64,000 nt of DNA. Source: an uncultured Sphaerobacteraceae bacterium (GTDB lineage: Bacteria > Chloroflexota > Chloroflexia > Thermomicrobiales > UBA6265). The stretch spans positions 9,814 to 73,813 of the forward strand of contig CAZGML010000006.1 of the NCBI GenBank assembly GCA_964526965.1, given 5' to 3'. Below, piece by piece: positions 1-29,807 of the stretch. The position numbers and the translations under genes are program-made. Position 1 is the first letter of the stretch, and each line of letters starts with the position of its first letter. The notes beneath the pieces were generated by a model, which searched no databases, was not told where the DNA came from, and worked only from the letters and a program-made list of their open reading frames with translations.

Positions 1-248
1 TGGCTATAGAGGCCAGCGGCGGCGAGGCCGTAGACGATTCCGCCGATAAGCCACCGCGCAAACACCGGGCCGTTCACGGTTGCTCCGTTGGCGATGTCTC
101 CGAGAATCACCAGCACAAGCGCCATCACAATGGCCGCGAGGCCGGCGAGACGCACCGGTAATCCGAGTTGCTTGGCGACCTCCACCAGTGGTGGTGTCAG
201 CACCAGTATGGAAACGCCGGTGATAATCTCAATCGAATCGGTCATCAT
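1..248 (-). CDS. holin-like small membrane protein (3' end cut by window edge)
   Basis: Not in ORF track because it runs off the window. My translation from ATG at 248: MMTDSIEIITGVSILVLTPPLVEVAKQLGLPVRLAGLAAIVMALVLVILGDIANGATVNGPVFARWLIGGIVYGLAAAGLYS.., with no stop. It has 2-3 hydrophobic helices, GGAGG just upstream, and an ATGA overlap with the stop of the amidase gene. Confidence 0.5.
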   Translation of the reverse strand, partial: MMTDSIEIITGVSILVLTPPLVEVAKQLGLPVRLAGLAAIVMALVLVILGDIANGATVNGPVFARWLIGGIVYGLAAAGLYS

Positions 249-1231: not shown

Positions 1232-1233
1232 AT

Positions 1234-3126
1234 CTATACCTCCACGAGGTTGAGGGTGATCATGCTGTCGCCCCAGTTGTTGGCGTCGGCCGGGAGTGCG
1301 ACGTGCTCCTGGATGCCGACGATGCGGACGGTGCGCTCGGTGGGGTCGGCGTCGTAGTCGATATCCCGGAAGGGGATGGGGGTATCGGTTTCCCAGGATT
1401 GCCATAGTTCATCTATGAGTTGGCGACCGGTGCGCTGGATGACCATGCCGTCGCGGTCGATTTCCTGATCGCGTGCGTGGATGCGGAGTTGCCACTTGCG
1501 ACGCCTGGCGGGTGAGCTCAATGCTTCGTGCTCGACCCAGAGCCCGGTGAGGATGGGTGCCCAATCGCTGACGCTGCCCCAGCGGACGCGAAGCTGGATG
1601 AATCGGGACGTGACGCCTTGCAGGACTTCTTCGATATCGAAGTTCATGGCTGCAAGGGAGTTGCCGTTGCTGCCAGCCCAGACCTGGCTGTAATCGCTGA
1701 ACACGGTGTGCCAGGTTTCGCCGGCGTTGGTGGAGTAGTCGAGTGCGACGAGGACGTTATCGCCGCTGGTGGTGTTGCCGTGGAGCTCGGGGCTGGAAAA
1801 GACGGCTCCGATCTTTCGCCATGCCTTGATCTTGTCGCGGTCGCCTGCATCGATGAGCGGTGTGACGAGCTCGGCGGTGGATGGATAGTTGTCGCCGTCG
1901 TTGAGTGGTTGGAGCCGGTAGGCGTGGTTGGTCTCCTCGCCGTGGCGGTGTACTTGCAGGTTCCATCCGGAGAGTGTGGTTCCGACGCTTAGTGGCCAAC
2001 ACCAGGTGGGTTCGGTCATGGGTTGGCGATCGAAGCACCACCAGCCGTTGCCGTCGTAGGCCCAGAGTTCGTTGTTGCCGCTGTGCGATTCGATGCTGAC
2101 GATAGCGTAGCCGGCGGCGATGCAGCCTCCGAAACATCGTTTGCCGGTCAGGCCGGTGGAGCGCCAGCCGGCGCGATCGCCGGACGGGACGAATTCGTGG
2201 ACGCCGCCGGAGATCCAGGCGATGGGTTTGCCTCCGTAGGATTCGAAGAAGCTGAAGTCTGATTGTTCGGTGTAGACGCCTTGCTGGAAGAAGGGTGTGA
2301 ATTCACCTGTCCAGGACTGGCCGGGCATTTGGGGTGGTGAAGCTGGGTCGTTGGGGTCGTAGCCGGGGTTGGGGCGCATGATATCGGCGACGCGGCCGGA
2401 AAAGGAGAAGAGCGCCTGTTTGGTGACGAGCATGATTTTCCCGTCGACGGGTGCCATATCGAACACGTCGTAGCTGACGTGCCTGCTGTCGACGCCGTCG
2501 CCGGTGACCATGCGGATGATGGTGGGGGTGGCGTTGGCGCGTGCATCTGTCCACATGGCGTAGCCTGCGTAGGCTTCGACGCGGTGGGCGCGCTCGCCCT
2601 GGAAGAGTTCGACTTCGGAGTCGAGCACGGTGTGCCGGAAGAGCAGGTCGGATGCGGAGCCGAAGGCAATGAGGATGCCGATGCTGCCGTAGATGGTGAG
2701 GTCTGTGATGGTGTGCGGGTAGGTTTTGATGAGTGTTGGACCGAGCGCGCCGTTGGCGACGCCTCCGCGGTAGAGGTCTCGGCCGATAGCGAAGTAGAGC
2801 GCATCGCGGACGGTGACGTGCGGGATGCGTGTGTTGCGGTCGGGCATGGTGTTCCCGGTGAGATCGAGGGACGACTCGACGCGAAGTCCCCACGGCGTGA
2901 CGCCTTGGCCGCCGAGGACTGGCCCGACGGCGCGGGAGTCGTAGAACTTGTCGCGTTCGAGCTGGTGTGATCGATGTTGGCCGCCGAAGAAGTCGGTTAT
3001 GGCGGTGCGATGCGTCAATCCCTCGGGGTAGCCGTCCTGGAGTTTGCGATAGCCGGGGTTGGTGGGTGTGCCTGGCTCGATCATGTAGCCGGCGTTGTTG
3101 AGGACGATATCGGTGGGTTGCGCCAT
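1234..3126 (-). CDS. large phage-associated structural protein, function unknown (630 aa)
   Basis: Long ORF with ATG at 3126 and GGAGG RBS, in the same operon-like string as portal, MuF fragment and endolysin. I recognise no motif. Confidence 0.6.
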   Translation of the reverse strand: MAQPTDIVLNNAGYMIEPGTPTNPGYRKLQDGYPEGLTHRTAITDFFGGQHRSHQLERDKFYDSRAVGPVLGGQGVTPWGLRVESSLDLTGNTMPDRNTRIPHVTVRDALYFAIGRDLYRGGVANGALGPTLIKTYPHTITDLTIYGSIGILIAFGSASDLLFRHTVLDSEVELFQGERAHRVEAYAGYAMWTDARANATPTIIRMVTGDGVDSRHVSYDVFDMAPVDGKIMLVTKQALFSFSGRVADIMRPNPGYDPNDPASPPQMPGQSWTGEFTPFFQQGVYTEQSDFSFFESYGGKPIAWISGGVHEFVPSGDRAGWRSTGLTGKRCFGGCIAAGYAIVSIESHSGNNELWAYDGNGWWCFDRQPMTEPTWCWPLSVGTTLSGWNLQVHRHGEETNHAYRLQPLNDGDNYPSTAELVTPLIDAGDRDKIKAWRKIGAVFSSPELHGNTTSGDNVLVALDYSTNAGETWHTVFSDYSQVWAGSNGNSLAAMNFDIEEVLQGVTSRFIQLRVRWGSVSDWAPILTGLWVEHEALSSPARRRKWQLRIHARDQEIDRDGMVIQRTGRQLIDELWQSWETDTPIPFRDIDYDADPTERTVRIVGIQEHVALPADANNWGDSMITLNLVEV

Positions 3127-3245
3127 GGAAAACCTCCGTTTTTGGTGAATGGCCGTAGAAGGCGTTTATTTGGCCTGTACGCGTTTGAACCCCCGTTCTG
3201 GGGTCAACACTCATTGAGCGGGGGTATCTGTTGGTGGTGGTGGTG

Positions 3246-3617
3246 TTACTGCGTGCGCTGCCAGCGATAGTCGATGCTGGTTGTCCAGACCTGTCGTTGT
3301 TGCCATTCCTCGATGAGGCGGACGTTGAACTCGGTGTGGTGGTAGACGCGCTCGCATCGGCAGTTGTCGTGGGCGGGTGGCTCGAAGCCTTCGCCCTGTT
3401 GCCAGACGTGGCCGTTGAGTTGGCCGCAGACGGGGCAGGTTCGTTCGTCGTCCTGTGTTTGCCAGACCTCGTAGCGGATGGGGTCGAAGCGTTCGGTGGT
3501 GACGCGGACCCATTCGATAGTCCATGAGCCGATGGTGTGGCCGATGAGGTTCCATCGTGGTTCTGGTTGGCGGACGGCGTCGCGGACGTGGGAGCCGATG
3601 ATCTGCCCGAGGTTCAT
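3246..3617 (-). CDS. phage head-morphogenesis (Mu F / SPP1 gp7-like) C-terminal zinc-ribbon domain protein
   Basis: ATG at 3617 with GGAGG RBS. CPVCGQLNG...PPAHDNCRCE matches the CxxC...HxNCRC signature at the C-terminus of the Phage_Mu_F family. Only 123 aa, so much shorter than full MuF proteins. Confidence 0.6.
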   Translation of the reverse strand: MNLGQIIGSHVRDAVRQPEPRWNLIGHTIGSWTIEWVRVTTERFDPIRYEVWQTQDDERTCPVCGQLNGHVWQQGEGFEPPAHDNCRCERVYHHTEFNVRLIEEWQQRQVWTTSIDYRWQRTQ

Positions 3618-3657
3618 GGGACAACCTCCATTCGAGACGCCGACAGGCACGACCCAC

Positions 3658-4317
3658 TCATTGGCCACTCCCATCGGCGAAGGATCCCGCTTTGAGCTTG
3701 TGAGTGCGACTCCAGAACATGCGGTCCGCATCCACCTGCGCGGTGCGGGCGGCCGCTGCCAGCGGATGCACACCGCTCTTGCCGGTGTATCGCTTGCCTT
3801 CGCTGATCGCACGGCGACTCAGGGCCACCGAAAGCGAGAGCGCCACCAGGATGTCTTCATCGTTCGGCTGGATATCCAGCGGCTCGAAATCATCTGTGGG
3901 TGGTTCGCGGTGCACCATGTGTTCGATGCGCCACACACCGCTGCGGGTAACCACACGCCCGAGCAGGATCGAGTTCGCCCAGGCGCGCCAGGTAGGAACA
4001 TCGCCGCTGGTGGAGGAGGTCGCTCCGCCAGGCACAGGCGGATGCGCGCCGGAACCTTCCCACCGCGGGATCAGTTGGCCCCGATCATCGAACACCCGCA
4101 CGATGCGCAGCACGTTCACATCGTCTGGCATTTCGATTTCCTGATCGCCGTTCAACACGGCAATCGCGCTTACTGCCTGTCGTGGCATGGACGTGCTGTA
4201 ACGTCGCACCGCTTCCGCGATGGCATCGTTGAGGAACTCGTCATCCCACAACGGGTCGGGTCCGTGGTCCTGAAGGCGATTGCGGAGCATATCGCGCAGT
4301 TGGGAGCGATTGGTCAT
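3658..4317 (-). CDS. hypothetical phage protein
   Basis: ORF 3658..4344. Preferred ATG is at 4317 (MTNRSQLRDML..) with an AAAGGA RBS. Lies between portal and MuF-like genes. Confidence 0.5.
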   Translation of the reverse strand: MTNRSQLRDMLRNRLQDHGPDPLWDDEFLNDAIAEAVRRYSTSMPRQAVSAIAVLNGDQEIEMPDDVNVLRIVRVFDDRGQLIPRWEGSGAHPPVPGGATSSTSGDVPTWRAWANSILLGRVVTRSGVWRIEHMVHREPPTDDFEPLDIQPNDEDILVALSLSVALSRRAISEGKRYTGKSGVHPLAAAARTAQVDADRMFWSRTHKLKAGSFADGSGQ

Positions 4318-4364
4318 GAGTGAGGTCCTTTCTCTGGTTGGCATCCTGAGTGACAGCCTGGCGA

Positions 4365-5837
4365 TTATTGAGGTGACGATTTTTCTGCCTGCATTTGCTG
4401 CAATTCGGCATCGGGGTCATGCTCGCCAAGCATGCTCATGGCGCTGCGGCGGCTCATTAATCCGTGTTCCACGCGGGCAACGGCGTTCCGCACGGAGGTA
4501 TTGACATCGCTGGGGAGAATCGGCGGCCAAATTGCGGTCGGCGTGCCAAAGCCAGATGTATCCAGGCCCTGGTGATGCGCCATCATCCGCAGCATCAACG
4601 TGGCGCGCTGGCTCAGCGCGGTATCCCATTGCCGCCGTTTGCGCTGGACCTTTTGCACCAGCGGCTGGATTTCAACCTCCAGCGCCGCACCGCTGAGATC
4701 GCGACCGCTATCGCCAAATGCCGTACGCGGCGTCTCGCTGAGGTCGTGAAGCATGCGGAAGAGCAGGTCCATGTACTTCATATGAATCTCGGCACCGCCG
4801 CCCTGCATCAGGTCGAGCAGGTAGGCGCGGGCACCTTCGGGGAGCTCCCATTTGGCGCCGGGCCCAATACGAATGCCTTCCGTACCATCCACGCCTTCCA
4901 ACACCGTGATCGGCGCGCCGGAGAGATCGAGGATCTGGCTAAACACATTCATGCGGCGATTGATCTCGGTGCAAACCGACATCAGGTCTTCGAGGTCAGA
5001 TTGCCCCCAGAACCGATCAGGGAGTGGATCGTTGGCGATGATGACGTACGGGATCATTCCATACGGATTTGTGAAGTTCGCCAACGTTTGCCCGTTCACC
5101 AGCACGCGGAAGCGGGAATCGGTCCAGACCTCCAGTGTGTTGACGGGCGCATCCAAATCCGTGGAGGCATCAAATTTTGCACCGAACTGATCCTGTAGCT
5201 GGCGTGGGGTTGCGCGATAGAGGTGCCGCACCTGCTCCACCTGCCGGGGATGATCGGCAGAGGTGCGTACGGTGATGCTGGCAGGATCCACAGCAACTAC
5301 GCTCGGCGTGGAGCGCCTGGTGTTCCAGGTGACTTTCATGGCAGCGTCACCCTGGATCATCGCCTGCAATGCCAGCGAGATATCCAGCCGGGTGAGGCCG
5401 AGTGCATCTCGCCAGCCGGCAAGCAGGTGCTCTGCCTCGTTCGCGCGTTCGAGCGCAGGCGCATCCGCCGGGATAGTGATTCCCACCGGCGCGTTGAAGA
5501 TGTAACTCACCGTTTTGCGGAGGAGCGTGCGAGCATAGTTAAACGTAAGCGCTTCCGGTTTCGAGCCGCGCTGTTGCCAACCTTCGGCGTAGGCGTTGAA
5601 CTCGTTGTAGCGCTGTAGCCGGGCATCATCGGCGGGAGACCGGGTGCCGGCGGGCCATCCGCTACCGATAGCCGCATGGCCAATAGCAGTGATGTTCACG
5701 TGCGCAAACCATCCTTTCCTGGCGGCAAAGGGTCGCTGATAGGCCCCCTTGCCACTGCGTACAGAGACGAAACAGAATGGAGCAGCTGCTTCCCGCAAGG
5801 AACGTGTATCGACCCGATTCCGACCGGTGCGCCGCAC
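4365..5837 (-). CDS. phage portal protein (SPP1 gp6-like)
   Basis: 490-aa ORF whose size and sequence pattern (..DLEDLMSVCTEINRRMNVFSQILDLSGAP.., ..LSGAALEVEIQPLVQKVQRKRRQW..) resemble portal proteins. Start is uncertain: GTG at 5837, or in-frame GTG at 5699. Confidence 0.6.
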   Translation of the reverse strand: MRRTGRNRVDTRSLREAAAPFCFVSVRSGKGAYQRPFAARKGWFAHVNITAIGHAAIGSGWPAGTRSPADDARLQRYNEFNAYAEGWQQRGSKPEALTFNYARTLLRKTVSYIFNAPVGITIPADAPALERANEAEHLLAGWRDALGLTRLDISLALQAMIQGDAAMKVTWNTRRSTPSVVAVDPASITVRTSADHPRQVEQVRHLYRATPRQLQDQFGAKFDASTDLDAPVNTLEVWTDSRFRVLVNGQTLANFTNPYGMIPYVIIANDPLPDRFWGQSDLEDLMSVCTEINRRMNVFSQILDLSGAPITVLEGVDGTEGIRIGPGAKWELPEGARAYLLDLMQGGGAEIHMKYMDLLFRMLHDLSETPRTAFGDSGRDLSGAALEVEIQPLVQKVQRKRRQWDTALSQRATLMLRMMAHHQGLDTSGFGTPTAIWPPILPSDVNTSVRNAVARVEHGLMSRRSAMSMLGEHDPDAELQQMQAEKSSPQ

Positions 5838-5894: not shown

Positions 5895-5910
5895 TAGAAC
5901 ACATGTTCTA
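5895..5910. promoter_or_regulatory. candidate LexA (Cheo-type) SOS box TAGAACA-CA-TGTTCTA
   Basis: Perfect 7+7 palindrome with the GAAC-N4-GTTC core. On the minus strand it overlaps a possible TAGAAA-17-TCTAAT promoter pointing into the portal operon. The same 14-mer TAGAACACATGTTC recurs at 15334. Confidence 0.5.
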
Positions 5911-6278: not shown

Positions 6279-7826
6279 ATGAACTCCGAGATTTCCGCTC
6301 CTGAAGTCTTAAGCAATCTCAATAACGATGAGCTTGTGGAAATGGCTGTCAAACGAGGCGAGGGCGAGGTGGCTTCCACCGGCGCACTGGCAGTTCGTAC
6401 CGGTACGTTTACAGGCCGATCACCCAGGGACAAGTTTGTGGTGCGGGAGCCCGAAAGTCGGGATGCTATCTGGTGGGGAGACGTTAACCAACCAGTGGAG
6501 CCGGAGAAATTCGAGGCGTTTAAGGCCGATGTCATTAAGTATCTCGACGGCAAGGATATGGTCTTCGCTCAGGATCTCAGCATCGGCGCCGACGAGGAAT
6601 ATGCTTATCCGGTGAACCTCACCACGGAGAGCGCCTACGCTGCGCTTTTCTGCCGACATCTCTTCATCACCGGAGAACGAAACCTCACCAGCAAGCCGAT
6701 CACCATTCTGCACGCGCCCGGTTTCGAGGCCGATCCGGAGCGCCATGGCTGCGCCAGCAGTACAGCCGTAATGATGCATCCCACCAGCCAGGAGATCGTC
6801 ATTGCCGGCACGCTCTATTCTGGAGAATTGAAGAAGGGCGTCTTCACGATGATGCAGTACCTGCTGCCGAATCGCGATGTTGCCACCATGCACTGCTCTG
6901 CCAACTACACAGATACCGAAAAGGAGGTCACCCTTTTCTTTGGCCTCTCTGGTACTGGCAAAACCACATTGAGTAACGACCCGGCTGCCACGCTGATCGG
7001 CGATGATGAGCATGGCTGGAGCGAGAACGGCGTCTTCAATTTCGAAGGCGGCTGCTACGCAAAAACCATCAACCTTTCGAAGGAAGACGAGCCCACCATC
7101 TGGCACGCCACCAATATGAAGAACACCGTGTTGGAGAATGTCCCCCTTGATCCGGAAACGAAAGAACCGGATTTCAGCGACATGAGTCTCACGGAGAATA
7201 CGCGCTCGGCGTTTAGCGTCGACCAGGTACCGAATGTCGACAACGATGGTACCGGCGGCCACGCGAAGCGTATTGTGTTGCTCACGGCCGATGCCACGGG
7301 CGTACTCCCGCCGGTGAGCAGGCTGGACCGAGGCCAGGCGCTCAGCCTTTACCTGCTCGGGTTCACGAGCAAGGTGGCCGGTACAGAACGCGGCATCACC
7401 GAACCGGAGCTGACCTTTAGCCCATGCTTTGGGTCACCGTTCCTGCCGCTGCCGCCGGAGCGCTACGCTGAACTGCTGGGCAAGCGCATCGATGAACATC
7501 AGCCGCGCCTGTGGCTGGTAAACACCGGCTGGGGCGGTGGCGATTACCTCACCGGCAAGCGCATCAGTATTGAAGATACCCGGGCCATTATCACAGCGAT
7601 CAATAACGATAGCCTGGCTGAATCGGAGACGGAGAAGCATCCGATTTTCAACCTCGATATGCCGATCGAGGCCAGTGGTGTCAAACCGGGGGTACTGAAT
7701 CCTCGCGAGGGCTGGGCGGATAAAGACGCCTATGATGTTGCGGCCAAAAAGCTGATGGATGCCTTCCGCAACCGCGCGAAGGAGATGGATATCAACCCCG
7801 AATGGACCCGCTGGCTGCAAGGGTAG
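6279..7826 (+). CDS. pckA: phosphoenolpyruvate carboxykinase (ATP)
   Basis: ATG at 6279 after GAAAGGA. RSPRDKF, kinase-1a GLSGTGKTTLS and IGDDEHGW motifs. 515 aa, typical of ATP-dependent PEPCK. Confidence 0.92.
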   Translation: MNSEISAPEVLSNLNNDELVEMAVKRGEGEVASTGALAVRTGTFTGRSPRDKFVVREPESRDAIWWGDVNQPVEPEKFEAFKADVIKYLDGKDMVFAQDLSIGADEEYAYPVNLTTESAYAALFCRHLFITGERNLTSKPITILHAPGFEADPERHGCASSTAVMMHPTSQEIVIAGTLYSGELKKGVFTMMQYLLPNRDVATMHCSANYTDTEKEVTLFFGLSGTGKTTLSNDPAATLIGDDEHGWSENGVFNFEGGCYAKTINLSKEDEPTIWHATNMKNTVLENVPLDPETKEPDFSDMSLTENTRSAFSVDQVPNVDNDGTGGHAKRIVLLTADATGVLPPVSRLDRGQALSLYLLGFTSKVAGTERGITEPELTFSPCFGSPFLPLPPERYAELLGKRIDEHQPRLWLVNTGWGGGDYLTGKRISIEDTRAIITAINNDSLAESETEKHPIFNLDMPIEASGVKPGVLNPREGWADKDAYDVAAKKLMDAFRNRAKEMDINPEWTRWLQG

Positions 7827-13816: not shown

Positions 13817-14779
13817 ATGCCCTATCGGTTCCAGCTGGAAGTTCCGGAAGAGCTCTACGAGCAAGCAAACGTTGTTATCAATCAAACGCACGATGCCGCT
13901 GTCAACGACACGCACGTGGGTATCGGCGGGGATTTTGACAATCCGGGCATCACGATCACGGTTTCTGCCCACTCACTGGATGTGGTGTGGAATATTCGGG
14001 AGTGGTGCGACGATGTGGTCGATAACATCCCGGATGCCCGCCCTGTGAACTACCTGTTCACAACCGGGGAGCGGGTGCCCGCACGAGATATCGAACCCGA
14101 AGCGGTGGTCGCTGCTATTCGTCGAGACCAACCGTGGGTCGATCGGACTATTCCGAAACTGGGTGAGCATGATTTCCGCTCCGGTCCGCCCGAGGCACTG
14201 AAGCCGGCGATGGCATCAGTTGAAACGGCGGTTTCCGAACCGACACCAGGCGTTGTCAACCCGCCGCGAATTGGAAACATCACCATCCTTGCAACGGATG
14301 AACCAACCGATCACCCCACACTCACCATCGATGGCGCCACCATGCTGCACCTGCCGATGATCGATCTTTTCCGCGCAGAGCAGGCGTATGGCGAAGTATT
14401 TGGTGCCCGACTTGTAGACCGTGCTGATCGTGACGGCCGCGGTGGCTACGTGTGGCACAATGCCGATCCGGACCAACGGGATCTGGTTCGTACCGTGCCC
14501 GAAGCCGATTTCGCGTTCCTGCAAAACGGACCACTCACGCTCGCGCTGGAGCGCCTTGGCCGCGCAGTGCCACTTGAAGTGCACGGCAATGTGCCCGCGC
14601 CAGTGAAGCTGCTGGTGTCGGATGATAGCCTGGAAACCATCAAGGCCGAGGCAATGGTGCGAAACTGGACCGTAATGGATGACAAGACACCCGGCATTTT
14701 CTTGTTCCGGGATCCATTTGGTTTCACCTGGGAAGTCCACGCAGAATCATTCGAAAAGGAAGTACTTGCCGATGCTTGA
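13817..14779 (+). CDS. hypothetical protein with C-terminal glyoxalase/VOC-like fold
   Basis: ATG at 13817 with GGGGAGAGG RBS. The C-terminal ..KLLVSDDSLETIKAEAMVRNWTV..IFLFRDPFGFTWEVH resembles VOC domains. Confidence 0.5.
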   Translation: MPYRFQLEVPEELYEQANVVINQTHDAAVNDTHVGIGGDFDNPGITITVSAHSLDVVWNIREWCDDVVDNIPDARPVNYLFTTGERVPARDIEPEAVVAAIRRDQPWVDRTIPKLGEHDFRSGPPEALKPAMASVETAVSEPTPGVVNPPRIGNITILATDEPTDHPTLTIDGATMLHLPMIDLFRAEQAYGEVFGARLVDRADRDGRGGYVWHNADPDQRDLVRTVPEADFAFLQNGPLTLALERLGRAVPLEVHGNVPAPVKLLVSDDSLETIKAEAMVRNWTVMDDKTPGIFLFRDPFGFTWEVHAESFEKEVLADA

Positions 14780-15212
14780 CGCCTATCAGGACCTGATCGA
14801 GGGTCTCACAGAGGAGAGCAACACTCTCCGTCAATTACTGGGGGATCCCGTTCCGGACGACCTGGATCCAGAAGTGTTGGCACTACTCAAGGAAGCACGA
14901 GCGCGCGAAGGCGCAATTCGGGCCCGAACGCAAAAGATCATGCGCGGCGAGAACGTGAACCTCCGCTCCATGGACAATGAACCGGCTGTGCGCAACTCCG
15001 CAGATATGGAAGGCACGCCAGAAGAAATTCTGCAAGCGTTTATCCTGGACCGCGGCGAGGTGGTAAGCCTGCTCATAAACCTCACCCTCAAGGATTGGGA
15101 GCGCAAGGTTCCCCACTGGGTATCAGGCGAAACAACCATTGCCGAGGAGGTAGAAGAGCACCTCGCCTGGGAAGACGAAGCGCTCGATAAATTTGAGGCC
15201 TCACTCGGCTAG
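14772..15212 (+). CDS. DinB-superfamily-like helical protein (tentative)
   Basis: ATG at 14772 overlaps the upstream stop (ATGCTTGA). 146 aa, helical and acidic. The family call is weak. Confidence 0.4.
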   Translation: MLDAYQDLIEGLTEESNTLRQLLGDPVPDDLDPEVLALLKEARAREGAIRARTQKIMRGENVNLRSMDNEPAVRNSADMEGTPEEILQAFILDRGEVVSLLINLTLKDWERKVPHWVSGETTIAEEVEEHLAWEDEALDKFEASLG

Positions 15213-15216
15213 TGCG

Positions 15217-15254
15217 AAAAAAAGCGAGCCGCCAGGCGGAACTCCGGCGGCTCG
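15217..15254 (-). terminator. rho-independent terminator whose U-tract is on the minus strand
   Basis: Minus-strand reading is CGAGCCGCC-(12 nt)-GGCGGCTCG followed by CTTTTTTT. On the plus strand there is no T-run after the stem. Confidence 0.7.
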
Positions 15255-15323
15255 GGAAGAGAAGGGTGTCACGTTAGCCAGATGGAAGCTGGAAAGGTGG
15301 GGATCGTCCTCCATCGGCGTGAC
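15217..15323 (-). ncRNA. candidate SOS-regulated small RNA (about 105 nt, predicted only)
   Basis: Bounded by the minus-strand promoter TTGCGC-17-TATACT (15330..15358) and the terminator at 15217..15254. Internal stems GUCACG/CGUGAC, GAUGGA/UCCAUC and CCAG/CUGG, plus a C/U-rich single-stranded CCCUUCUCUUCCC stretch. Confidence 0.4.
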
Positions 15324-15329
15324 AACATC

Positions 15330-15358
15330 AGTATAGAACACATGTTCGTACAGCGCAA
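15330..15358 (-). promoter_or_regulatory. sigma-70-like promoter with a LexA (Cheo) box filling the spacer
   Basis: Minus strand: TTGCGC (15358..15353), 17-nt spacer TGTACGAACATGTGTTC, TATACT (15335..15330). The spacer contains GAAC-N4-GTTC, the same 14-mer as at 5895. Confidence 0.5.
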
Positions 15359-15372
15359 GAGGTTACCTAATT

Positions 15373-15660
15373 ATGCATGGCGAATATAAAACCCCCGGCG
15401 GGAAGCTGGTGGTGGTGGACTTTGATGTCGTTGACGGTCGGTTCAAGAATATGGTTATCAGTGGCGATTTCTTCCTTTATCCGGAGGAAGAACTCAAACC
15501 CCTGACCGAGGCGCTTGAGGGTGTGGATGTCGATCTTGATGATGAGAGCTTCGCCGAACGTATCCGCATGGATCTCCACCCTGATACCCAGCTACTCGGG
15601 ACCTCGCCTGAGGGGATCGTTATCGCCGTACGCCGCGCACTTGATGGAGTGGAATCATGA
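15373..15660 (+). CDS. lipoate-protein ligase C-terminal accessory domain protein (LplB-like)
   Basis: 95 aa. GGKLVVVDFDVVDG..ISGDFFLYPEE pattern of the Lip_prot_lig_C domain. ATGA overlap with the downstream catalytic subunit. Confidence 0.7.
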   Translation: MHGEYKTPGGKLVVVDFDVVDGRFKNMVISGDFFLYPEEELKPLTEALEGVDVDLDDESFAERIRMDLHPDTQLLGTSPEGIVIAVRRALDGVES

Positions 15661-16472
15661 GTGATCGGGTTCAGCCAACCCCGGAACAACGCGCTGATTG
15701 GGAGCGACGATTCAAAAGCGTTAAGTGGACACTGCTTCCAAATCCAAAGCTCGCCCCACGCGCACAAAACGCCATGGACGAAGTGATTCTCGATGAGATG
15801 GCTGCCGGCCGCCGCGGGCCACACATCCGCTTCTGGAACTGGAACGCAAACGCCGTCATCATCGGGCGCTTCCAGAGTGTCAAAAACGAAGTGCACGAAG
15901 ACGCCGCGCGCGAAGGTGGTGTCACCATCAGCCGTCGTATGACCGGCGGCGGTGCCATGCTGATTGAGCCGCAGAACGCCATTACCTACACGATCGCGGC
16001 ACCAGAGGAACTGGTAAAGGGGATGAACTTCGCCGAAAGCTATCAGTTTTTCGATAGCTGGGTGCTGGACTCCCTGCGAGAGCTCGGCGTAGATGCCTGG
16101 TATGTTCCGCTCAACGACATCACAAGTAGCAACGGTAAAATTGGTGGCGCGGCCCAGGCTCGCAAGAAGGGCATTGCCCTGCACCACACCACCTCTGCCT
16201 ATGACATGACCGACGGCGCCCTTACCCGTATCCTCCGCATCGGCAAGGAAAAGCTGAGCGATAAGGGAGTCACCAGCGCAGAACGGCGCGTTGCACCTTT
16301 GCGCCAACAAACGGAACTGGACCGCGACGTGATCATCAATCATATGATCGGCTACTTCCGCGGCCAGTACGGGTTAGAGGACGATACCTTCCGCCCGGAG
16401 GAACTGGAACGGCTCGATGAACTGGTCACCACCAAGTACGACACAGACGAGTGGGTATATTCCTTGCCCTGA
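15657..16472 (+). CDS. lplA: lipoate-protein ligase catalytic subunit (LplA-N type)
   Basis: BPL_LplA_LipB features: ..RRMTGGGAMLIEP.. and NGKIGGAAQARKKGIALHHT (lipoyl-AMP-binding Lys region). Lacks its own C-terminal domain. Confidence 0.8.
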   Translation: MSDRVQPTPEQRADWERRFKSVKWTLLPNPKLAPRAQNAMDEVILDEMAAGRRGPHIRFWNWNANAVIIGRFQSVKNEVHEDAAREGGVTISRRMTGGGAMLIEPQNAITYTIAAPEELVKGMNFAESYQFFDSWVLDSLRELGVDAWYVPLNDITSSNGKIGGAAQARKKGIALHHTTSAYDMTDGALTRILRIGKEKLSDKGVTSAERRVAPLRQQTELDRDVIINHMIGYFRGQYGLEDDTFRPEELERLDELVTTKYDTDEWVYSLP

Positions 16473-16595
16473 CGCCTGGTTTTCCCATCAAATCGAATAG
16501 CTGCGTACGTACTACTTGATTGTCAACGTCGTACACACCATAATAGGTTTTGCGTTTCAATTTCGCAGGGCTATTTCGTCAAGTCAGGGGTACGC

Positions 16596-17906
16596 GTGCC
16601 GACTGCCAAACGAACAACACCTTTCGTGCTGCTCGCAGTATTGCTCATGCCTCTTCTCCTGGCATGCAGCGAAGAGGCTGCTACCCAATCGGCAGCAACC
16701 AGCGTAGCTGGCACTCCAGCCACCGTTGTCAGCAGTCCTGCCGCAACGGCGGAAACGGAAGCAATCCCAATCGATGTAGCCACGCCATCCACCCCGGAGC
16801 CGGCCGGGTTCGTACCGCAAGAGCTCACTCCGGAAGAACTGGTGGAGCACCAGCCAAATGAGTTGGGTGCCATTCCCATCTTCATGTATCACAACATCGT
16901 GACCGATCCGAGCCTGGAAGGACACCTCTACCGCACCGTGGATGAGTTCTATAACGACCTGCAATGGCTCTACGACAACAACTTCTACCTGGTTGGAATG
17001 AACGCCGTCGTGCGTGGGTACTTTGAAGTACCGGCCGGAAAACACCCGGTGGTGCTGACCTTCGATGACAGTTCAAGCATGCATTTCAGCTTTGAGCTCG
17101 GACCGGACGGCCAGCCGCTACTCGATTCCAATGGTGATTACGTTGTTACGCCGAACTCTGCGGTAGGCATCATCGAAAAGTTCACCGCCGAGCATCCGGA
17201 TTTCGGCAAGGCCGCACATTTCTCCACGATCCCGCAATTCAAGTTCTCATGGCCGGAGTACGAGCAGGATGAATGGTACGAAACCAAGGTGCAATGGCTA
17301 CTGGATAACAACTATGAAATCGGCAACCATACCTCGGATCATATCGACCTGACGCAAGCGGATTCCGAGACGTTCGCTCGCAACATCGCCGAGCCATATA
17401 TCTTGATCAGCGGCATAGTTGATCCGAACGACCCCAACTTCGCCATGGGTGTGCTGACGTTGCCGTACGGCGCATATCCGGAAGGAGGTTGGACGGGCGA
17501 CAAGTTCAACTACCTCGCCAATGGATTCGTTTGGGATGGATATGAAATTCCGGTCGAAGGTGCGCTGTTGGTGTGCTGTGGAGCCAATCCCAGCCCGTTC
17601 CATGACGACTATCGCCGTCTCTGGATAGCGCGCATCCGTGGCGATGATCCCGATTTCGAGCGCTTTGCGGAAGAGATCGAAAACGGGTGGGTGATTCTGT
17701 ACACCAGCGATGGAAATCCGGATACCGTTACCGTTCCGTGGCCACTTCCAGAGTCGCAATGGGGTAAGCTAAATGAAGACGCGATCACAAATCGCGGTCT
17801 TACGCTGGTCAAGTACTATCCGGAAACAGGCAGGATTTTTACTGCTATCCGGCCCCGTGACCAACAATCGTATAATTGTGTTGAACGAGCACACGTATCT
17901 GCCTGA
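16596..17906 (+). CDS. polysaccharide deacetylase (NodB-homology) lipoprotein
   Basis: GTG start, LLLAC lipobox, FMYHNI, LTFDDSS and GNHTSDH motifs of the carbohydrate esterase 4 fold. Confidence 0.75.
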   Translation: MPTAKRTTPFVLLAVLLMPLLLACSEEAATQSAATSVAGTPATVVSSPAATAETEAIPIDVATPSTPEPAGFVPQELTPEELVEHQPNELGAIPIFMYHNIVTDPSLEGHLYRTVDEFYNDLQWLYDNNFYLVGMNAVVRGYFEVPAGKHPVVLTFDDSSSMHFSFELGPDGQPLLDSNGDYVVTPNSAVGIIEKFTAEHPDFGKAAHFSTIPQFKFSWPEYEQDEWYETKVQWLLDNNYEIGNHTSDHIDLTQADSETFARNIAEPYILISGIVDPNDPNFAMGVLTLPYGAYPEGGWTGDKFNYLANGFVWDGYEIPVEGALLVCCGANPSPFHDDYRRLWIARIRGDDPDFERFAEEIENGWVILYTSDGNPDTVTVPWPLPESQWGKLNEDAITNRGLTLVKYYPETGRIFTAIRPRDQQSYNCVERAHVSA

Positions 17907-24468: not shown

Positions 24469-25719
24469 ATGGACGAGCAGCGCCACGATCGGCAAAACAG
24501 CTCGGCACGGCGAGGGGTAACCCGCAAACTGGTTTCGCTTGGCGTTCTTGCAATGTCCGCTGTGCTTGTGCTCAGCGCTTGTGGTCCGGATGTCGAGAAG
24601 CCATATTCCACCGTCGATCCGGCTTCTATCACCGCCGGAGACACTCATGACCTCTACAAGCTGGTTTTCTGGCTATCACTGGTCGTCTTCGTTGGTGTGC
24701 AGTTCTCTGTCGTTTACCTTTCCTTGCGCTTCCGCCGCAAGAAGAACGAAACCCGACGACCACCCCAGATTCACGGTAACAAGCAGCTGGAGCTGATCTG
24801 GACCATTATTCCGGCCGTCGTTCTCCTTATCCTGCTGATCCCGACTCTGAACACCTTGTTCGACCACGATGCCCAGGCGCAGGAAGGCGACCTGCAGGTA
24901 GACGTATACGGCAAGCAGTGGTGGTGGGAGTTCCACCTCGGTGAAGACCAGGTTCAGAACGGTGACAGCCTGGATGTTGTAACCGCCAATGAGATCGTTA
25001 TTCCGGTTGGCCGCAACACCGTCTTCAATATGTATTCGAACAACGTCATTCACAGCTTCTGGGTGCCACAGCTCACTGGTAAGCTCGATGTGATCCCCGG
25101 GCACGTAAACAGCCTTTCCATCACACCAACTGAAACCGGCGAATTCTATGGAGAATGTGCGGAGTACTGCGGTGCCCAGCACGCCTGGATGCGCTTCAAA
25201 ATCAATGTGGTGGAAGAGGACGAATTCTACAACTGGGTGAACAACTGGCGCACGAGCCCCGCTGCTTCCACGCAGGAGCAGGAAGCTGACAGCGATATCG
25301 TAGAGGCGCCGGCCATGTTCAGCGTTTGCCTCAGCTGCCACACCTTCAACGGTTTCGAGGGTGCACCCCAGCTCACCGGTATCGACGCCCCGGCGACGTT
25401 CGGACCCGACCTCACCATGATGGTGTGCCGCGAAACCTTTGCTGCAGGATTAATGGAAACAACACCGGAGAACCTCAAGCAATGGTTGTTAGACCCCGGC
25501 GCAGTGAAACCGGAAAACTACATGGCTACGCAAGTCGGGCCAGGTATGCCGGTGGATCTCACCGAGGAGCAAGCTGAAGAATTTGTGGACTTCCTCTACG
25601 CCATGGCGCCGGAAGGAGGGTGTACAGCCGCAGAAGGCTGGGACTCCTCTGGTGACGACGGAGCAGCAACTCCGCAGGCAACACCTGCGGAAGAGGAACA
25701 GGCAACACCGGCCGCCTGA
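24469..25719 (+). CDS. ctaC: cytochrome c oxidase subunit II with fused cytochrome c domain (caa3 type)
   Basis: LSAC lipobox, CuA site HSFWVPQL..CAEYCGAQHAWM, and a C-terminal CLSCH heme-c motif. Confidence 0.9.
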   Translation: MDEQRHDRQNSSARRGVTRKLVSLGVLAMSAVLVLSACGPDVEKPYSTVDPASITAGDTHDLYKLVFWLSLVVFVGVQFSVVYLSLRFRRKKNETRRPPQIHGNKQLELIWTIIPAVVLLILLIPTLNTLFDHDAQAQEGDLQVDVYGKQWWWEFHLGEDQVQNGDSLDVVTANEIVIPVGRNTVFNMYSNNVIHSFWVPQLTGKLDVIPGHVNSLSITPTETGEFYGECAEYCGAQHAWMRFKINVVEEDEFYNWVNNWRTSPAASTQEQEADSDIVEAPAMFSVCLSCHTFNGFEGAPQLTGIDAPATFGPDLTMMVCRETFAAGLMETTPENLKQWLLDPGAVKPENYMATQVGPGMPVDLTEEQAEEFVDFLYAMAPEGGCTAAEGWDSSGDDGAATPQATPAEEEQATPAA

Positions 25720-25791
25720 TAACTGGCCGCAATGGATACATCACAATCGCGGGCTCGTTAGTATTTAGTGGGCCACGGGTAGGAGCGCGAT

Positions 25792-27714
25792 ATGTCATCA
25801 ATTGCACAGCCTCACGCGACGCCATCGGTGCAAACCGATGTCAGTACGCAAACTGGCAAGCAACAACGAAGCGGTGTGTGGGACTGGCTCACCACCATTG
25901 ATCACAAGAAGATCGGCATCATGTATGGTGTTGCCTCTGTCTTCTTCCTTATGCTCGGTGGTCTCGAGGCGCTGATCATCCGCACCCAGCTGATCACAGA
26001 CGGCAACAGCCTGATTGATGAAAAGCTCTATAACGAGCTCTTCACCATGCACGGCACCACCATGATCTTCCTGGGAGTTATGCCCCTGACGGTGGCATTC
26101 TGGAACTACGTCATGCCGTTACAAATCGGCGCACGTGACGTAGCAATGCCACGGCTGAACGCCTTCAGCTTCTGGCTGTTCCTCTCCGCAGGATTTGTGC
26201 TCAACCTGAGCTGGTTCTTCGGCGAAGCCCCGAACCAGGGTTGGTACGCCTACGCACCATTGACTGACCTGGCCTGGAACCCGACCCGTGCCGTTGACTT
26301 CTGGATCGTCGGACTTTCCATTGCCGGTATCTCTTCGATGCTGGGTGCGTTCAACTTTATCGTCACCATTCTCAATATGCGTGCGCCGGGCATGACCCTG
26401 ATGCGTATGCCGATCTTTACCTGGACAACGCTGATCACCGGTATCCTGCTGATCATGGCCTTCCCGGCCATCACCATTGCGATCATCTTCCTGATGCTCG
26501 ATCGCTGGCTCGGCACCAACTTCTACGTTGTAGCAGCGGGCGGTGACCCCCTGTTGTGGCAGCACCTCTTCTGGATCTTCGGTCACCCCGAGGTCTACAT
26601 CATGATTCTGCCGGTCTTCGGAATTGTCTCCGAGATCGTGCCGACCTTTAGCCGCAAGCCACTCTTTGGTTACAGCATCATGGTGTATGCAACCGCAGCC
26701 ATTGCCTTCCTGGGCTTCGGCGTGTGGGCGCACCACATGTTCACCACCGGTATGGGCCCAACGGCCAACGCGGTGTTTAGTGCAACAACCATGACCATCG
26801 CCATTCCCACCGGCGTGAAGATCTTCAACTGGCTGGGAACCATGGCGCTAGGCCAGGTGAGGTTTACCACGCCCATGATGTTCGTCGTGGGTATGGTCAG
26901 TATGTTCACTATTGGCGGTATCTCGGGTGTTATGCACTCCGTTGTGCCGATCGACGCACACCACAACGACAGCTACTTCCTTATCGCTCACTTCCACTAC
27001 GTACTCTTCGGTGGATCCATGTTCGGTCTCATCGGCGGAATCTACTACTGGTTCCCGAAGATCACCGGACGCATTATGGATGAGACCGTCGGCAAGTGGA
27101 ACTTCTGGCTCACGTTTATTGGCTTCAACGCCACCTTCTTCCCGATGCACTTCCTTGGCCTGGAAGGTATGCCACGCCGCTACTACACCTACGGTGAAGG
27201 AGCCGGCTGGAACTTCTGGAACCTGGTTGTCACCATCGGCGCGTACATTCTCGGCTTCGCCATGCTGATGTTGCTCTACAACATCGGTACCAGCCTGAAG
27301 AAGGGTCGACGCGTAGGCGCCAACCCGTGGGACGCACCAACGCTGGAATGGGCTACCACCAGCCCGCCGCCGGTCTACAACTTTGCCGAGCAGCCTGAAG
27401 TCGCCAGCCGCGACCCGCTGTGGGCGGAGAAGTACGGCCATACTGGCGATGCCCCGGCGTACATTGAGAGTGAAGAGATCGTGTTCCCGCCAGACGCGGG
27501 CGACAAGATTCACCTGCCGAACCCGAGCTTCTGGCCGTTCTTCTCGGCTATTGGCATGCTGCTGATGCAGGGCGGGTTCCTGTTCGAAACCATCACACTC
27601 TTCTATCTTGGCCCGTTGGCCATTTCGATAGTGACGATGGCTGGATTGATTATGCTGCTATGGGGCATCTTCGCCTGGGCCTTTGAGCCTACCGGCGTCG
27701 AAGGCTTGCATTAG
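25792..27714 (+). CDS. ctaD: cytochrome c oxidase subunit I
   Basis: WFFGHPEVY-type motif (LFWIFGHPEVYIMILP) and HHMFT. 640 aa with additional C-terminal TM helices. Confidence 0.95.
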   Translation: MSSIAQPHATPSVQTDVSTQTGKQQRSGVWDWLTTIDHKKIGIMYGVASVFFLMLGGLEALIIRTQLITDGNSLIDEKLYNELFTMHGTTMIFLGVMPLTVAFWNYVMPLQIGARDVAMPRLNAFSFWLFLSAGFVLNLSWFFGEAPNQGWYAYAPLTDLAWNPTRAVDFWIVGLSIAGISSMLGAFNFIVTILNMRAPGMTLMRMPIFTWTTLITGILLIMAFPAITIAIIFLMLDRWLGTNFYVVAAGGDPLLWQHLFWIFGHPEVYIMILPVFGIVSEIVPTFSRKPLFGYSIMVYATAAIAFLGFGVWAHHMFTTGMGPTANAVFSATTMTIAIPTGVKIFNWLGTMALGQVRFTTPMMFVVGMVSMFTIGGISGVMHSVVPIDAHHNDSYFLIAHFHYVLFGGSMFGLIGGIYYWFPKITGRIMDETVGKWNFWLTFIGFNATFFPMHFLGLEGMPRRYYTYGEGAGWNFWNLVVTIGAYILGFAMLMLLYNIGTSLKKGRRVGANPWDAPTLEWATTSPPPVYNFAEQPEVASRDPLWAEKYGHTGDAPAYIESEEIVFPPDAGDKIHLPNPSFWPFFSAIGMLLMQGGFLFETITLFYLGPLAISIVTMAGLIMLLWGIFAWAFEPTGVEGLH

Positions 27715-27734
27715 TCTGCCTGGGAGGACGAAAC

Positions 27735-28463
27735 ATGGCTCAGACACTTGACGCCAACACTGCCGCAGCCGGGCAAGGTCAAATTGATGACCACGGCGGC
27801 GGCCATGGCCACGGAGGCGAGGGAACGGGCGTCGAAAACCGCAAGTTAATGATGTGGATGTTCCTCGCCAGTGACTGTATGTTCTTTGGTGCGCTCATCG
27901 CCACCTTCATGATCTACCGAGACCGCGCGATGGAAGTGGGCGTTGGCCCCTTCCCGCACGAGCTGATCGATATTCCGTTTACCTCCGTGAGCGCGTTTGT
28001 ACTGCTCATGAGCTCGCTCACCATGGTGCTTAGCCTGGGAAGCCTGCAGAAGGGGCACATCCGCAACTCCCGCATCTGGCTCGCTGCCACGGCGATCCTT
28101 GGCCTTACCTTCCTGGGTGGCCAGGTGTTCGAGTTCACCGAGTTCTACAACGCCGGCCTCACCCTGCAGGGCAACATCTTCGGTAGCGCGTTCTTCACGC
28201 TCACCGGTTTCCACGGTATTCACGTGGGTCTTGGGGTTCTGTGGCTGGGTGCATTGCTCTTCGTGAGCCTGCGCGGTGGATTGAAACAGGAAAACGCTGT
28301 AACGCTGGAAATCGCTGGCCTGTATTGGCACTTTGTGGATATCGTCTGGATCGTTATCTTCACACTGGTCTACCTGCTTCCATACAACGAGGGCGATGAA
28401 TCCACGAGCGAAACCGCCTCGCAGGGCATGGACATTGCACTAACGCTGTTACAGCGCTTCTAG
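27735..28463 (+). CDS. ctaE: cytochrome c oxidase subunit III
   Basis: Size, TM pattern, FTLTGFHGIHV and LYWHFVD motifs. Confidence 0.9.
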   Translation: MAQTLDANTAAAGQGQIDDHGGGHGHGGEGTGVENRKLMMWMFLASDCMFFGALIATFMIYRDRAMEVGVGPFPHELIDIPFTSVSAFVLLMSSLTMVLSLGSLQKGHIRNSRIWLAATAILGLTFLGGQVFEFTEFYNAGLTLQGNIFGSAFFTLTGFHGIHVGLGVLWLGALLFVSLRGGLKQENAVTLEIAGLYWHFVDIVWIVIFTLVYLLPYNEGDESTSETASQGMDIALTLLQRF

Positions 28464-28478
28464 CGGGAGGAATTAACA

Positions 28479-28847
28479 ATGGCAAGCGTACCCAGTACAC
28501 ACGGGCACGAGCATCACGATGATCATCCCCCACTTTCATTGTGGGTAAACATCGCGATATTCCTGGCAATCGCTACCGCTGTCGAAGTCGCTATCTATTA
28601 CATCCCGGCGGTGGAAGGCATTCTGGTGCCGCTGCTGGTGGCTCTCTCGGCAGTCAAGTTCGCATTCGTTATCTGGTACTTCATGCACCTGAAGTACGAC
28701 AACAAAATCCTGGCTGGCACGTTTATCGCGGCGCTTACAGTCAGCCTCATCGTGTTTATCGCCCTTTGGGTGATCATGTACTACGACAACCCGACAGTGT
28801 TCCACCCGAACACCAGTATTTTCGATCAAAAGCCGTCTGGTCCGTAA
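28479..28847 (+). CDS. ctaF: cytochrome c oxidase subunit IV (prokaryotic type)
   Basis: 122 aa, 3 TM helices, KFAFVIWYFMHLK motif. Position is right after ctaE. Confidence 0.8.
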   Translation: MASVPSTHGHEHHDDHPPLSLWVNIAIFLAIATAVEVAIYYIPAVEGILVPLLVALSAVKFAFVIWYFMHLKYDNKILAGTFIAALTVSLIVFIALWVIMYYDNPTVFHPNTSIFDQKPSGP

Positions 28848-28871
28848 CCGGGCCACAGGCTAACGGATAGA

Positions 28872-29807
28872 GTGATTTCATACATGCTGCAATCGCTGCA
28901 CTTACTGCCACTCCTGCACGTAGGGGGTCCCGAGCCAATCGGGTTCCCCTACACGCACTGGATCATTGAACCCGCGGTAGCGGTGGCCATGATGATCATG
29001 ACCATCGGGTATTTCCTTGTGGTTGGCCCGCTGAATCGGCGTCGTCCCGGCGTTGAGAACCGGCCAGTCACCAACGCGCAAATCCGCTGGTTCATTCTCG
29101 GACAGGTCTTCCTGCTTATTTCGCTCGGTCCGCCGCTGGACGACTGGAGTTACCACTTCTTTGCCAGTGTGCATATGGTGCAGCACTTGCTGCTGATGTT
29201 TGCCGTGGTGCCGTGCTGGATCAAGGGCACACCGCCATGGGTGTTGCGATCACTGCTGAATAACGCACTTGGTCGCTTCTTGCTTACCAAGGCACCAAAG
29301 GTACTGCCTGGCTTTGTAATGGCCACCATGATCATCGTGCTGTGGCACTTCCCGGCGCTGTATAACCTCACACTCGAGAATCAGTTCGTCCACGCAATGC
29401 AGCACATTGCTTTCCTGGTGGCGGGGTTCCTGTTCTTCTGGCCGATTATGAGCCCATTACCGGAAGCTCCACAGCTGCCGCCGCTGCTCAAGTGCCTCTA
29501 TCTCTTCCTGCAGACCCTGCCGAGCGGTATCGTTGGCGCCATGATTGTGTACGCCAGCCCCGGTTTGTACCCGCATTACGCCAAAGCGGTACAGCGGCCA
29601 TTTGGCTTGAGTCTTGCTGAGGATCAGGTGCTAAGCGGCATGATTATGTGGGTTGGTATGAATACCGTTTTCCTGGCAATGATTACCGTTATCTTCCTGA
29701 AATACGCAGCCGCTGAAGAGAAGAAAGATCAGGAAGCGATTGAATCGGGTACAGCGACTACACGCATCGTGCCCGTGAAAGAGCCGACAGGCGCTCATAC
29801 CGCCTGA
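28872..29807 (+). CDS. ctaG: cytochrome c oxidase assembly factor CtaG (Caa3_CtaG family)
   Basis: Polytopic membrane protein with HMVQHLLLM and HAMQHIAFL His motifs. GTG at 28872, or ATG at 28884. Confidence 0.75.
   Translation: MISYMLQSLHLLPLLHVGGPEPIGFPYTHWIIEPAVAVAMMIMTIGYFLVVGPLNRRRPGVENRPVTNAQIRWFILGQVFLLISLGPPLDDWSYHFFASVHMVQHLLLMFAVVPCWIKGTPPWVLRSLLNNALGRFLLTKAPKVLPGFVMATMIIVLWHFPALYNLTLENQFVHAMQHIAFLVAGFLFFWPIMSPLPEAPQLPPLLKCLYLFLQTLPSGIVGAMIVYASPGLYPHYAKAVQRPFGLSLAEDQVLSGMIMWVGMNTVFLAMITVIFLKYAAAEEKKDQEAIESGTATTRIVPVKEPTGAHTA

Follow-up and report, generated by a model that had tools for sequence, protein, structure and literature searches.

A putative LexA-controlled small RNA gene with a conserved, covarying fold in Thermomicrobiales

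In a 64,000-nucleotide (nt) stretch of DNA from an uncultured Sphaerobacteraceae bacterium (Chloroflexota; Thermomicrobiales; GenBank assembly GCA_964526965.1, contig CAZGML010000006.1, positions 9,814 to 73,813 of the forward strand; hereafter "the window"), the minus strand between a DinB-like gene and the lipoate-protein ligase gene lplB carries what is very likely a genuine structured small RNA (sRNA) gene. The gene would stand alone, encode a non-coding RNA of about 100-107 nt and be read from a sigma-70-type promoter with a Cheo-type operator in its spacer. Repression of this promoter by LexA is probable on the evidence of the operator sequence, and the combined description as a LexA-repressed, trans-acting sRNA of the anti-Shine-Dalgarno type is modestly favoured. 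The initial annotation of the region, made from the letters alone, had proposed a candidate SOS-inducible sRNA; the in silico tests run on this reading, those of conservation and of structure, all came out in its favour.

Few sRNAs are known to be controlled by LexA directly: the toxin-antitoxin RNAs of E. coli, and the 6C RNA of Corynebacterium, which depends on LexA in part. As far as we know from an Rfam scan and a limited search of the literature, regulatory sRNAs of Thermomicrobiales have not been described before. The locus is a compact case that joins a 14-base-pair putative operator in a 29-base-pair promoter to an RNA of about 105 nt with a covariation-backed fold and two candidate seeds. 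Confirmation would extend the SOS regulon of Chloroflexota by a post-transcriptional arm and provide a new RNA family for annotation; the importance of the locus would grow steeply with proof of damage induction and of a checkpoint-type target.

Conservation, fold and terminator of the RNA element

BLASTN and nhmmer searches with the intergenic region as query yielded nine loci, situated upstream of lplB. A covariance model was built first on five close sequences and then rebuilt on eleven. The comparison comprises 12 Thermomicrobiales lineages, i.e. the window and the loci L001-L009, L025 and L026, with covariance-model E-values of 2e-23 to 6e-12 for eleven lineages and 0.021 for L009. A search of this kind in related genomes had been suggested in the initial annotation, which had also named missing conservation or structure in relatives as a ground for giving up the idea; the search recovered the 12 lineages, and the fold covaries among them.

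In all 12 lineages the RNA lies on the strand opposite to lplB and beside the 3' end of the DinB-like gene, in the order NlpC/P60 (minus), X (plus), DinB-like (plus), RNA (minus). In L009 a gene for a 436-amino-acid FAD-type oxidoreductase stands between the RNA and lplB (L009:1926-2090, 2302-3612), and promoter, box and RNA remain one block next to the DinB-like 3' end. Since this block is detached from lplB, yet intact, the box is not merely an lplB operator, and the idea that it serves lplB only was rejected on this ground. Using the covariance model, no second copy of the RNA was found in the window and none in the loci from outside the Thermomicrobiales. A pattern scan of metagenomes returned two contigs only, both identical to L006, and a scan of viral contigs gave seven pattern matches and no family member; one of these (L035) is no more than an AT-rich phage terminator. 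On these searches, the RNA family appears narrow and chromosomal.

The predicted RNA is composed of two hairpins joined by a pyrimidine-rich linker (all coordinates on the minus strand). Hairpin 1 (15267-15324), defined by folding and covariation, consists of the three segments P1 (UGUCAC/GUGACA), P2 (GCC/GGC) and P3 (GAUGGAGG/CUUCCAUC) and a 19-nt apical loop, and the loop holds the motif UCCCCA (15298-15303, within GAUCCCCAC at 15305-15297). It is followed by the G-free, C/U-rich single-stranded linker CCCUUCUCUUCCC (15254-15266), by the stem-loop of hairpin 2, GAGCCGCCGG..CCUGGCGGCUC (15225-15254), and by a tract of seven U residues (15217-15223). The RNA from 15324 to 15217 folds with -44.6 kcal/mol (z = -5.0), and none of 200 shuffled sequences was equally stable. 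Ten homologues folded singly adopt the same architecture, with a three-segment hairpin 1, a pyrimidine linker and hairpin 2 (z between -3.7 and -6.4). Three nested stems had been predicted earlier for this RNA; the prediction errs in a minor detail, as CCAG/CUGG competes with GAUGGA/UCCAUC and all three cannot be nested at once.

Covariation was computed on a covariance-model alignment of the 12 sequences with 29 base pairs, in which 92.9% of the pair cells are standard. Compensatory changes occur at 17 of the 29 pairs, against 7.3±1.7 in shuffled alignments (0 of 500 shuffles reached as many), and pairing falls to 30-43% in a slid control in which the 3' partners were moved by 1-3 columns. 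Changes on both sides were found in 14 of the 17 pairs of helices 1 and 2, with helix 2 contributing 10 compensated pairs out of 11 and many pair types. Hairpin 2 is 99.3% paired over the 12 sequences and shows three compensated pairs as well as a G-U pair at 104/122 in five sequences. RNAalifold predicts the same 29 pairs from this alignment. The alignment was fitted to the covariance model and is thus biased towards structure; the fold is convincing all the same because the independent single-sequence folds agree and because helix 2 is realized with so many pair types. For the strand, we counted 25 G-U against 13 A-C cells, and 274 of 296 standard cells on the minus strand against 262 of 296 on the plus strand. 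Together with promoter orientation and U-tract, the G-U excess and the standard-cell count favour the minus strand.

Sequence conservation, in turn, concentrates in the unpaired elements. UCCCCA is identical in all 12 sequences, with an unpaired probability of 0.84-1.00 in the 11 for which it was computed, and in the 11 lineages in which it was measured the linker is G-free, 13-19 nt long and 78-100% C/U. The linker of L008, ACCCCUCCUCCACC, contains CCUCC, the core of the anti-Shine-Dalgarno sequence. The exposed C/U-rich stretch noticed earlier in the window is thus retained in the relatives as a G-free pyrimidine tract and can be regarded, on folds and composition, as an anti-Shine-Dalgarno-like candidate seed, while the invariant loop motif joins it as the other candidate (numbered 2 and 1, respectively, in their order along the RNA).

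The hairpin at 15254-15225 is the best of its 5-kilobase region in a terminator scan (11 pairs, 9 of them G-C). On the minus strand, about 75 nt downstream of the promoter, it is followed by CTTTTTTT / CUUUUUUU; on the plus strand A7 precedes it and GGGAAGAGAAGGG follows, with no U-tract. Because of this plus-strand continuation, the hairpin terminates solely in the minus orientation. The earlier claim of an intrinsic terminator whose U-tract exists in one direction alone is borne out by these data. A clear U-tract follows hairpin 2 in 7 of the 12 lineages.

Neither strand of the element shows coding potential. The minus strand has an open reading frame (ORF) of 37 codons with ATG at 15314 and stop at 15201, the plus strand has one of 35 codons, and a 46-amino-acid ORF has no match in Pfam. 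Frames, starts and lengths of the ORFs differ among the lineages, L003 has no sense ORF of at least 20 codons, and the loop indels measure 1-2 nt and are not multiples of three. On this evidence a coding gene was rejected for both strands; the initial view that the 37-codon ORF exists and a non-coding RNA is nonetheless the better interpretation agrees with this lack of conservation. Scans against Rfam 15 at E<=10 returned only noise for window positions 14000-17000 and for seven homologous loci, and no tRNA or tmRNA was found. At L006:194-266 a short stretch resembles, on either strand, precursor models of plant and animal microRNAs (best E-value 0.0015, far below gathering); a long perfect inverted repeat presumably accounts for this, rather than membership of an RNA family.

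Promoter and putative LexA-type operator

On the minus strand the window reads TTGCGC (-35 hexamer, 15353-15358), the 17-nt spacer TGTACGAACATGTGTTC (15336-15352) and TATACT (-10 hexamer, 15330-15335). The putative LexA-type (Cheo-box-like) operator CGAACATGTGTTCT at 15335-15348, with its GAAC-N4-GTTC core at 15336-15347, occupies the spacer of this predicted promoter, and in 12 of 12 lineages the -10 hexamer begins with the operator's final T. All parts of the LexA-box promoter described in the initial annotation were thus found in place. From promoter geometry, transcription would start at 15321-15325, about 7 nt past the -10 hexamer and at the foot of hairpin 1.

When the 12 promoters are aligned on the palindrome, they share the pattern TTGC.c, 4 nt, CGAACA nnn GTtCT, AtacT, with a distance of 17 nt between the -35 and -10 hexamers in every lineage. 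TTGC of the -35 hexamer is kept in 10 of the 12 orthologues and is replaced by TTGACA in L008 and TTGTCA in L009; the -10 hexamer occurs as TAyAcT, TATTCT or TAATTT at a constant distance to the box. The left operator arm CGAACA is found in 11 of 12 lineages, and the right arm reads GTTC in seven, GTAC in four (L005-L008) and GTGC in one (L009). The 3-nt centre takes seven different forms over the 12 lineages. Kept arms around a variable centre are expected of a site for a dimeric repressor, which is what the alignment suggests here, and not of a mere spacer.

The motif is enriched and its best instances stand apart from the background. The window contains GAAC-N4-GTTC four times (expectation 0.86), a count not reached in any of 100 shuffles. 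A weight matrix was built on the 12 orthologous operators and scanned over the window, where just two sites exceed 20 bits, namely 15335-15348 (21.2 bits) and a second site at 5896-5909 to which we return below; the next best site scores 14.5 bits. Both top sites are intergenic, in a window of which intergenic DNA makes up 11.5%. The B. subtilis LexA consensus is CGAACATATGTTCG, and CGAACATGTGTTCT agrees with it at 12 of 14 positions. The same GAAC-N4-GTTC motif is reportedly present in Dehalococcoides, a member of the Chloroflexi, according to work by Fernandez de Henestrosa and colleagues from 2002. In Gram-positive bacteria, GAAC-N4-GTTC is documented as the motif bound by LexA (PMC3323433).

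A further palindrome of the LexA-box type was seen in three of the related loci. The perfect palindrome GGAACGTACGTTCC is located at L005:1756-1769, L006:1133-1146 and L007:1740-1753, in an intergenic region of about 640 nt that extends from the NlpC/P60 gene to the X/DinB-like operon, and lies about 130 nt upstream of the conserved promoter-like element TTGGTACAAT. It is present neither in the window nor in L001-L004, where the region between NlpC/P60 and X measures just 105-458 nt. As a LexA box ahead of the X/DinB-like operon is confined to these three loci, it was rejected as a general feature.

Proposed mode of action and competing explanations

The elements described above can be combined into the following scenario. 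In the undamaged cell a LexA dimer on CGAACA-N3-GTTCT would occlude RNA polymerase; after DNA damage, RecA-stimulated self-cleavage of LexA would free the promoter and permit a burst of an RNA of about 105 nt that ends at the GAGCC...GGCUC hairpin and its U-tract. This RNA would expose two conserved pyrimidine-rich elements, the UCCCCA loop of hairpin 1 and the C/U-rich linker, and the most likely mode of action would be their pairing in trans with G-rich Shine-Dalgarno regions of target mRNAs, by which translation would be lowered. C-rich sRNAs such as 6C and RoxS/RsaE act by pairing with G-rich Shine-Dalgarno regions. For the RNA studied here we hold the anti-Shine-Dalgarno mechanism in trans only tentatively, with less than even confidence. 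An extension of it, in which the RNA is a dedicated effector of the SOS response in Chloroflexota that builds up once LexA is cleaved and whose pyrimidine tract, similar to the anti-Shine-Dalgarno sequence of 16S rRNA, and UCCCCA motif mask the Shine-Dalgarno regions of a set of mRNAs, is quite unlikely; its targets might be, at the same low level of confidence, cell-division or replication genes, which would make it an RNA counterpart of the checkpoint factors SulA and YneA. We know of no SOS checkpoint effector in Chloroflexota.

Several observations weigh against the LexA-repressed sRNA as outlined. With regard to the promoter, TTGCGC is a weak -35 hexamer that agrees with TTGACA at 3 of 6 positions, and the promoter as a whole, with 8 of 12 consensus matches, stays under the threshold of a generic promoter scan; its credibility derives from its conservation, not from closeness to consensus. 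The right half-site of the operator has drifted, to GTAC in L005-L008 and to GTGC in L009. The U-tract is weak in L005, L006, L007, L009 and L025, so that termination in these five lineages may be inefficient, and the strand asymmetry of pairing is modest and was obtained from an alignment fitted to a minus-strand model. With regard to targets, duplex scans of the 64-kilobase window and of the starts of neighbouring genes gave no discriminating match, every Shine-Dalgarno region being purine-rich. With regard to the regulator, neither lexA nor recA was found in the window or in the fetched loci (tblastn with E. coli LexA and RecA as queries), and no SOS gene was recognised among the approximately 50 ORFs of the window in Pfam and PHROGs. 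A protein search with B. subtilis LexA matched Bacillus only, a tblastn search of PLSDB revealed no Thermomicrobia replicon with lexA, and literature searches for a LexA motif of Chloroflexi yielded nothing useful. In an earlier comparison, the Sphaerobacteraceae were without a well-defined LexA motif or represented by too few genomes (PMC3323433).

Among known systems, the actinobacterial 6C RNA (RF01066) is by analogy the one that seems functionally closest. It is likewise a small (about 80-100 nt), stand-alone and highly structured RNA with conserved C-rich single-stranded elements. In C. glutamicum its promoter carries an operator for LexA, and mitomycin C or the loss of lexA relieves the repression 2-3 fold (PMC5014011). 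The two RNAs differ in architecture, as 6C forms two hairpins with at least six Cs in each loop, in contrast to a single three-part hairpin with a UCCCCA loop and a C/U-rich linker here; in operator position, upstream of -35 in 6C and within the core-promoter spacer for the putative operator here; and in phylum (Actinobacteria versus Chloroflexota). The RF01066 model found no match at E<=10 in the window region and seven loci, and the single C-rich loop of the present RNA holds 4-5 Cs, so it does not belong to the 6C family.

RoxS/RsaE (RF01820), the UCCC-motif sRNAs of Firmicutes, carry a Rho-independent terminator and exposed C-rich stretches that are thought to pair with G-rich Shine-Dalgarno regions, and they are controlled by ResDE, SrrAB and Rex in response to NO and redox signals, not by LexA. 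They share the logic of a C-rich seed and a terminator with the RNA described here and differ from it in fold and regulator; the RF01820 covariance model matched neither the window region nor the seven loci. In E. coli, IstR (tisB) and AgrB (dinQ) are small RNAs linked to the LexA regulon (PMC5014011). These are antitoxin RNAs encoded beside LexA-controlled toxin peptide genes, each pairing with that one mRNA, whereas no conserved small ORF or toxin gene adjoins our RNA, which hence does not qualify as part of a type I toxin-antitoxin system; the LexA motif differs as well, CTGT-N8-ACAG in E. coli versus GAAC-N4-GTTC here. The din promoters of B. subtilis resemble the locus in that a Cheo box, by its usual consensus a CGAACA-N-TGTTC-like palindrome, lies over the core promoter (PMC3323433), with the difference that they drive protein genes and the predicted product here is an RNA. 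Judged by its sequence features, the locus represents a new RNA family within a kind already known, the stress-regulon sRNAs with pyrimidine seeds, of which it is a putative member. We are aware of no earlier description of such regulators in Chloroflexota.

Four other explanations were weighed against a LexA-repressed sRNA acting in trans. The RNA could instead act in cis, as an antisense or convergent-transcription regulator of the X/DinB-like operon. The operon's mRNA, for which the plus strand provides only GGGAAGAGAAGGG after the hairpin and no U residues, may read through the sRNA gene and possibly into lplB-lplA; the minus transcript would then pair perfectly with the read-through RNA or collide with its polymerase, and thereby set the 3' end of the operon or uncouple lplBA from it. 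Such a role would suit the strict tail-to-tail arrangement with the DinB-like gene, preserved even in L009 where lplB is displaced, the start of lplB 14 nt past the -35 hexamer of the sRNA with no convincing plus-strand promoter of its own visible there, and the weak U-tracts of five lineages, which would let the minus transcript enter the DinB-like gene in antisense. Tail-to-tail synteny is equally expected from the sharing of a terminator, however, and perfect antisense pairing needs no conserved fold. Hairpin 1 is compensated and its 6-nt loop motif invariant, which suggests that the folded RNA has a function in its own right, and we consider regulation in cis unlikely.

No more probable, and unlikely to the same degree, is a structured sRNA whose operator is the site of a different regulator, not of LexA, and which responds to a signal other than DNA damage. 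Binding of LexA is deduced from the motif, and no recognised SOS gene stands beside either of the two strong sites in the window. Yet the match to the Cheo/LexA consensus extends past the GAAC/GTTC core (CGAACA...TGTTC, 12/14), the site is placed inside the core promoter in a LexA-like geometry, and the second site precedes a phage portal gene, a typical context of SOS control. Even the drift of the right arm to GTAC has a parallel in LexA boxes, which are known to drift towards the cyanobacterial form RGTAC-N3-DGTWCB.

Titration of a protein, with the UCCCCA loop and the pyrimidine tract as recognition elements for a protein and no pairing to mRNA, would account for the invariance of the loop hexamer, for the conservation of hairpin 2 in sequence, loop included, beyond the needs of a terminator, and for the absence of a predicted target in the local scans. 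We regard it as very unlikely, given that no protein can be named as its partner, that binding motifs repeated as in CsrB-type sponges are absent, and that C-rich loops and pyrimidine linkers are a hallmark of base-pairing anti-Shine-Dalgarno sRNAs. Finally, it is hardly credible that there is no RNA gene at all and that the region is the terminator of the DinB-like gene plus a divergent LexA-regulated lplB promoter region, or encodes a small protein: in the window 25 nt do separate the box from the start codon of lplB downstream, and short ORFs exist on both strands, but a strongly covarying hairpin 1 separates the "terminator" from the "promoter", the block of L009 is detached from lplB, the U-tract faces the wrong way to serve the DinB-like gene, and the ORFs are not conserved, with loop indels that are no multiples of three.

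Neighbouring genes and a second operator-like site

On one side of the RNA, in convergent orientation, lie gene X (13817-14779, plus, 320 amino acids), the first of the X/DinB-like pair, and the DinB_2-like gene (14772-15212, plus), which is recognised by a weak Pfam match and by synteny. The initial annotation had called this neighbour DinB-like; a DinB_2 match is indeed present (E = 2.7e-4), but it remains below threshold (21.8 bits versus a cut-off of 24.8). As listed, the DinB_2-like ORF (14679-15212, 177 amino acids) overlaps X by 100 nt. Its homologues align only from residue 32 on, and the start is therefore probably the ATG at 14772 (MLDAYQDL); a start at this position overlaps the stop of X by 8 nt, which suggests translational coupling. 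Divergent from the RNA are the split lipoate-protein ligase genes lplB (15373-15660, plus; Lip_prot_lig_C) and lplA (15657-16472, plus; LplA-B_cat, 1.2e-39). In a collection of species-representative genomes the closest homologues of LplA belong to metagenome-assembled genomes of Sphaerobacteraceae and Thermomicrobiales (94-59% identity), which assigns the window to a Thermomicrobiales member of the Chloroflexota.

The second operator of the same type, AGAACACATGTTCT at 5896-5909 (strand not assigned), has the top score of the window (21.9 bits). Its neighbours are an SPP1-type portal gene (4365-5837, minus; phrog_64, 1.7e-31), of which the site is directly upstream, and, on the other side, pckA (about 6279-7826, plus). 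Hexamers resembling a -10 element flank it on both sides, TATTCT on the plus and TAATCT on the minus strand. Going by its sequence, the site probably belongs to the same regulon as the sRNA and is not part of the sRNA gene. The portal-gene surroundings are a plausible SOS-controlled context, and the site may mark an SOS-controlled phage-derived cluster or else a transcript so far overlooked within the 365 nt that precede pckA. If the LexA reading is confirmed, it would help to define the LexA regulon of this clade. In the stretch from 245 to 5837 the portal gene is accompanied by a weak endolysin-like match (245-1405, minus; phrog_435, 2.7e-5), and the remaining ORFs there have no match in Pfam or PHROGs; the stretch may be a decayed prophage or another phage-derived element.

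Elsewhere in the window, a complete caa3-type cytochrome c oxidase operon with COX2, COX1, COX3, COX4_pro and CtaG was found at 24469-29807. A 109-amino-acid ORF at 37360-37689 (minus) matches the N-terminal half of short-chain dehydrogenase models alone (positions 1-99 of 195) and may be a truncated or frameshifted gene of this type beside a TetR regulator. Inside this ORF, at 37654, lies the 14-bit operator-like site CGCACGTTTGTTCG, which is probably due to chance.

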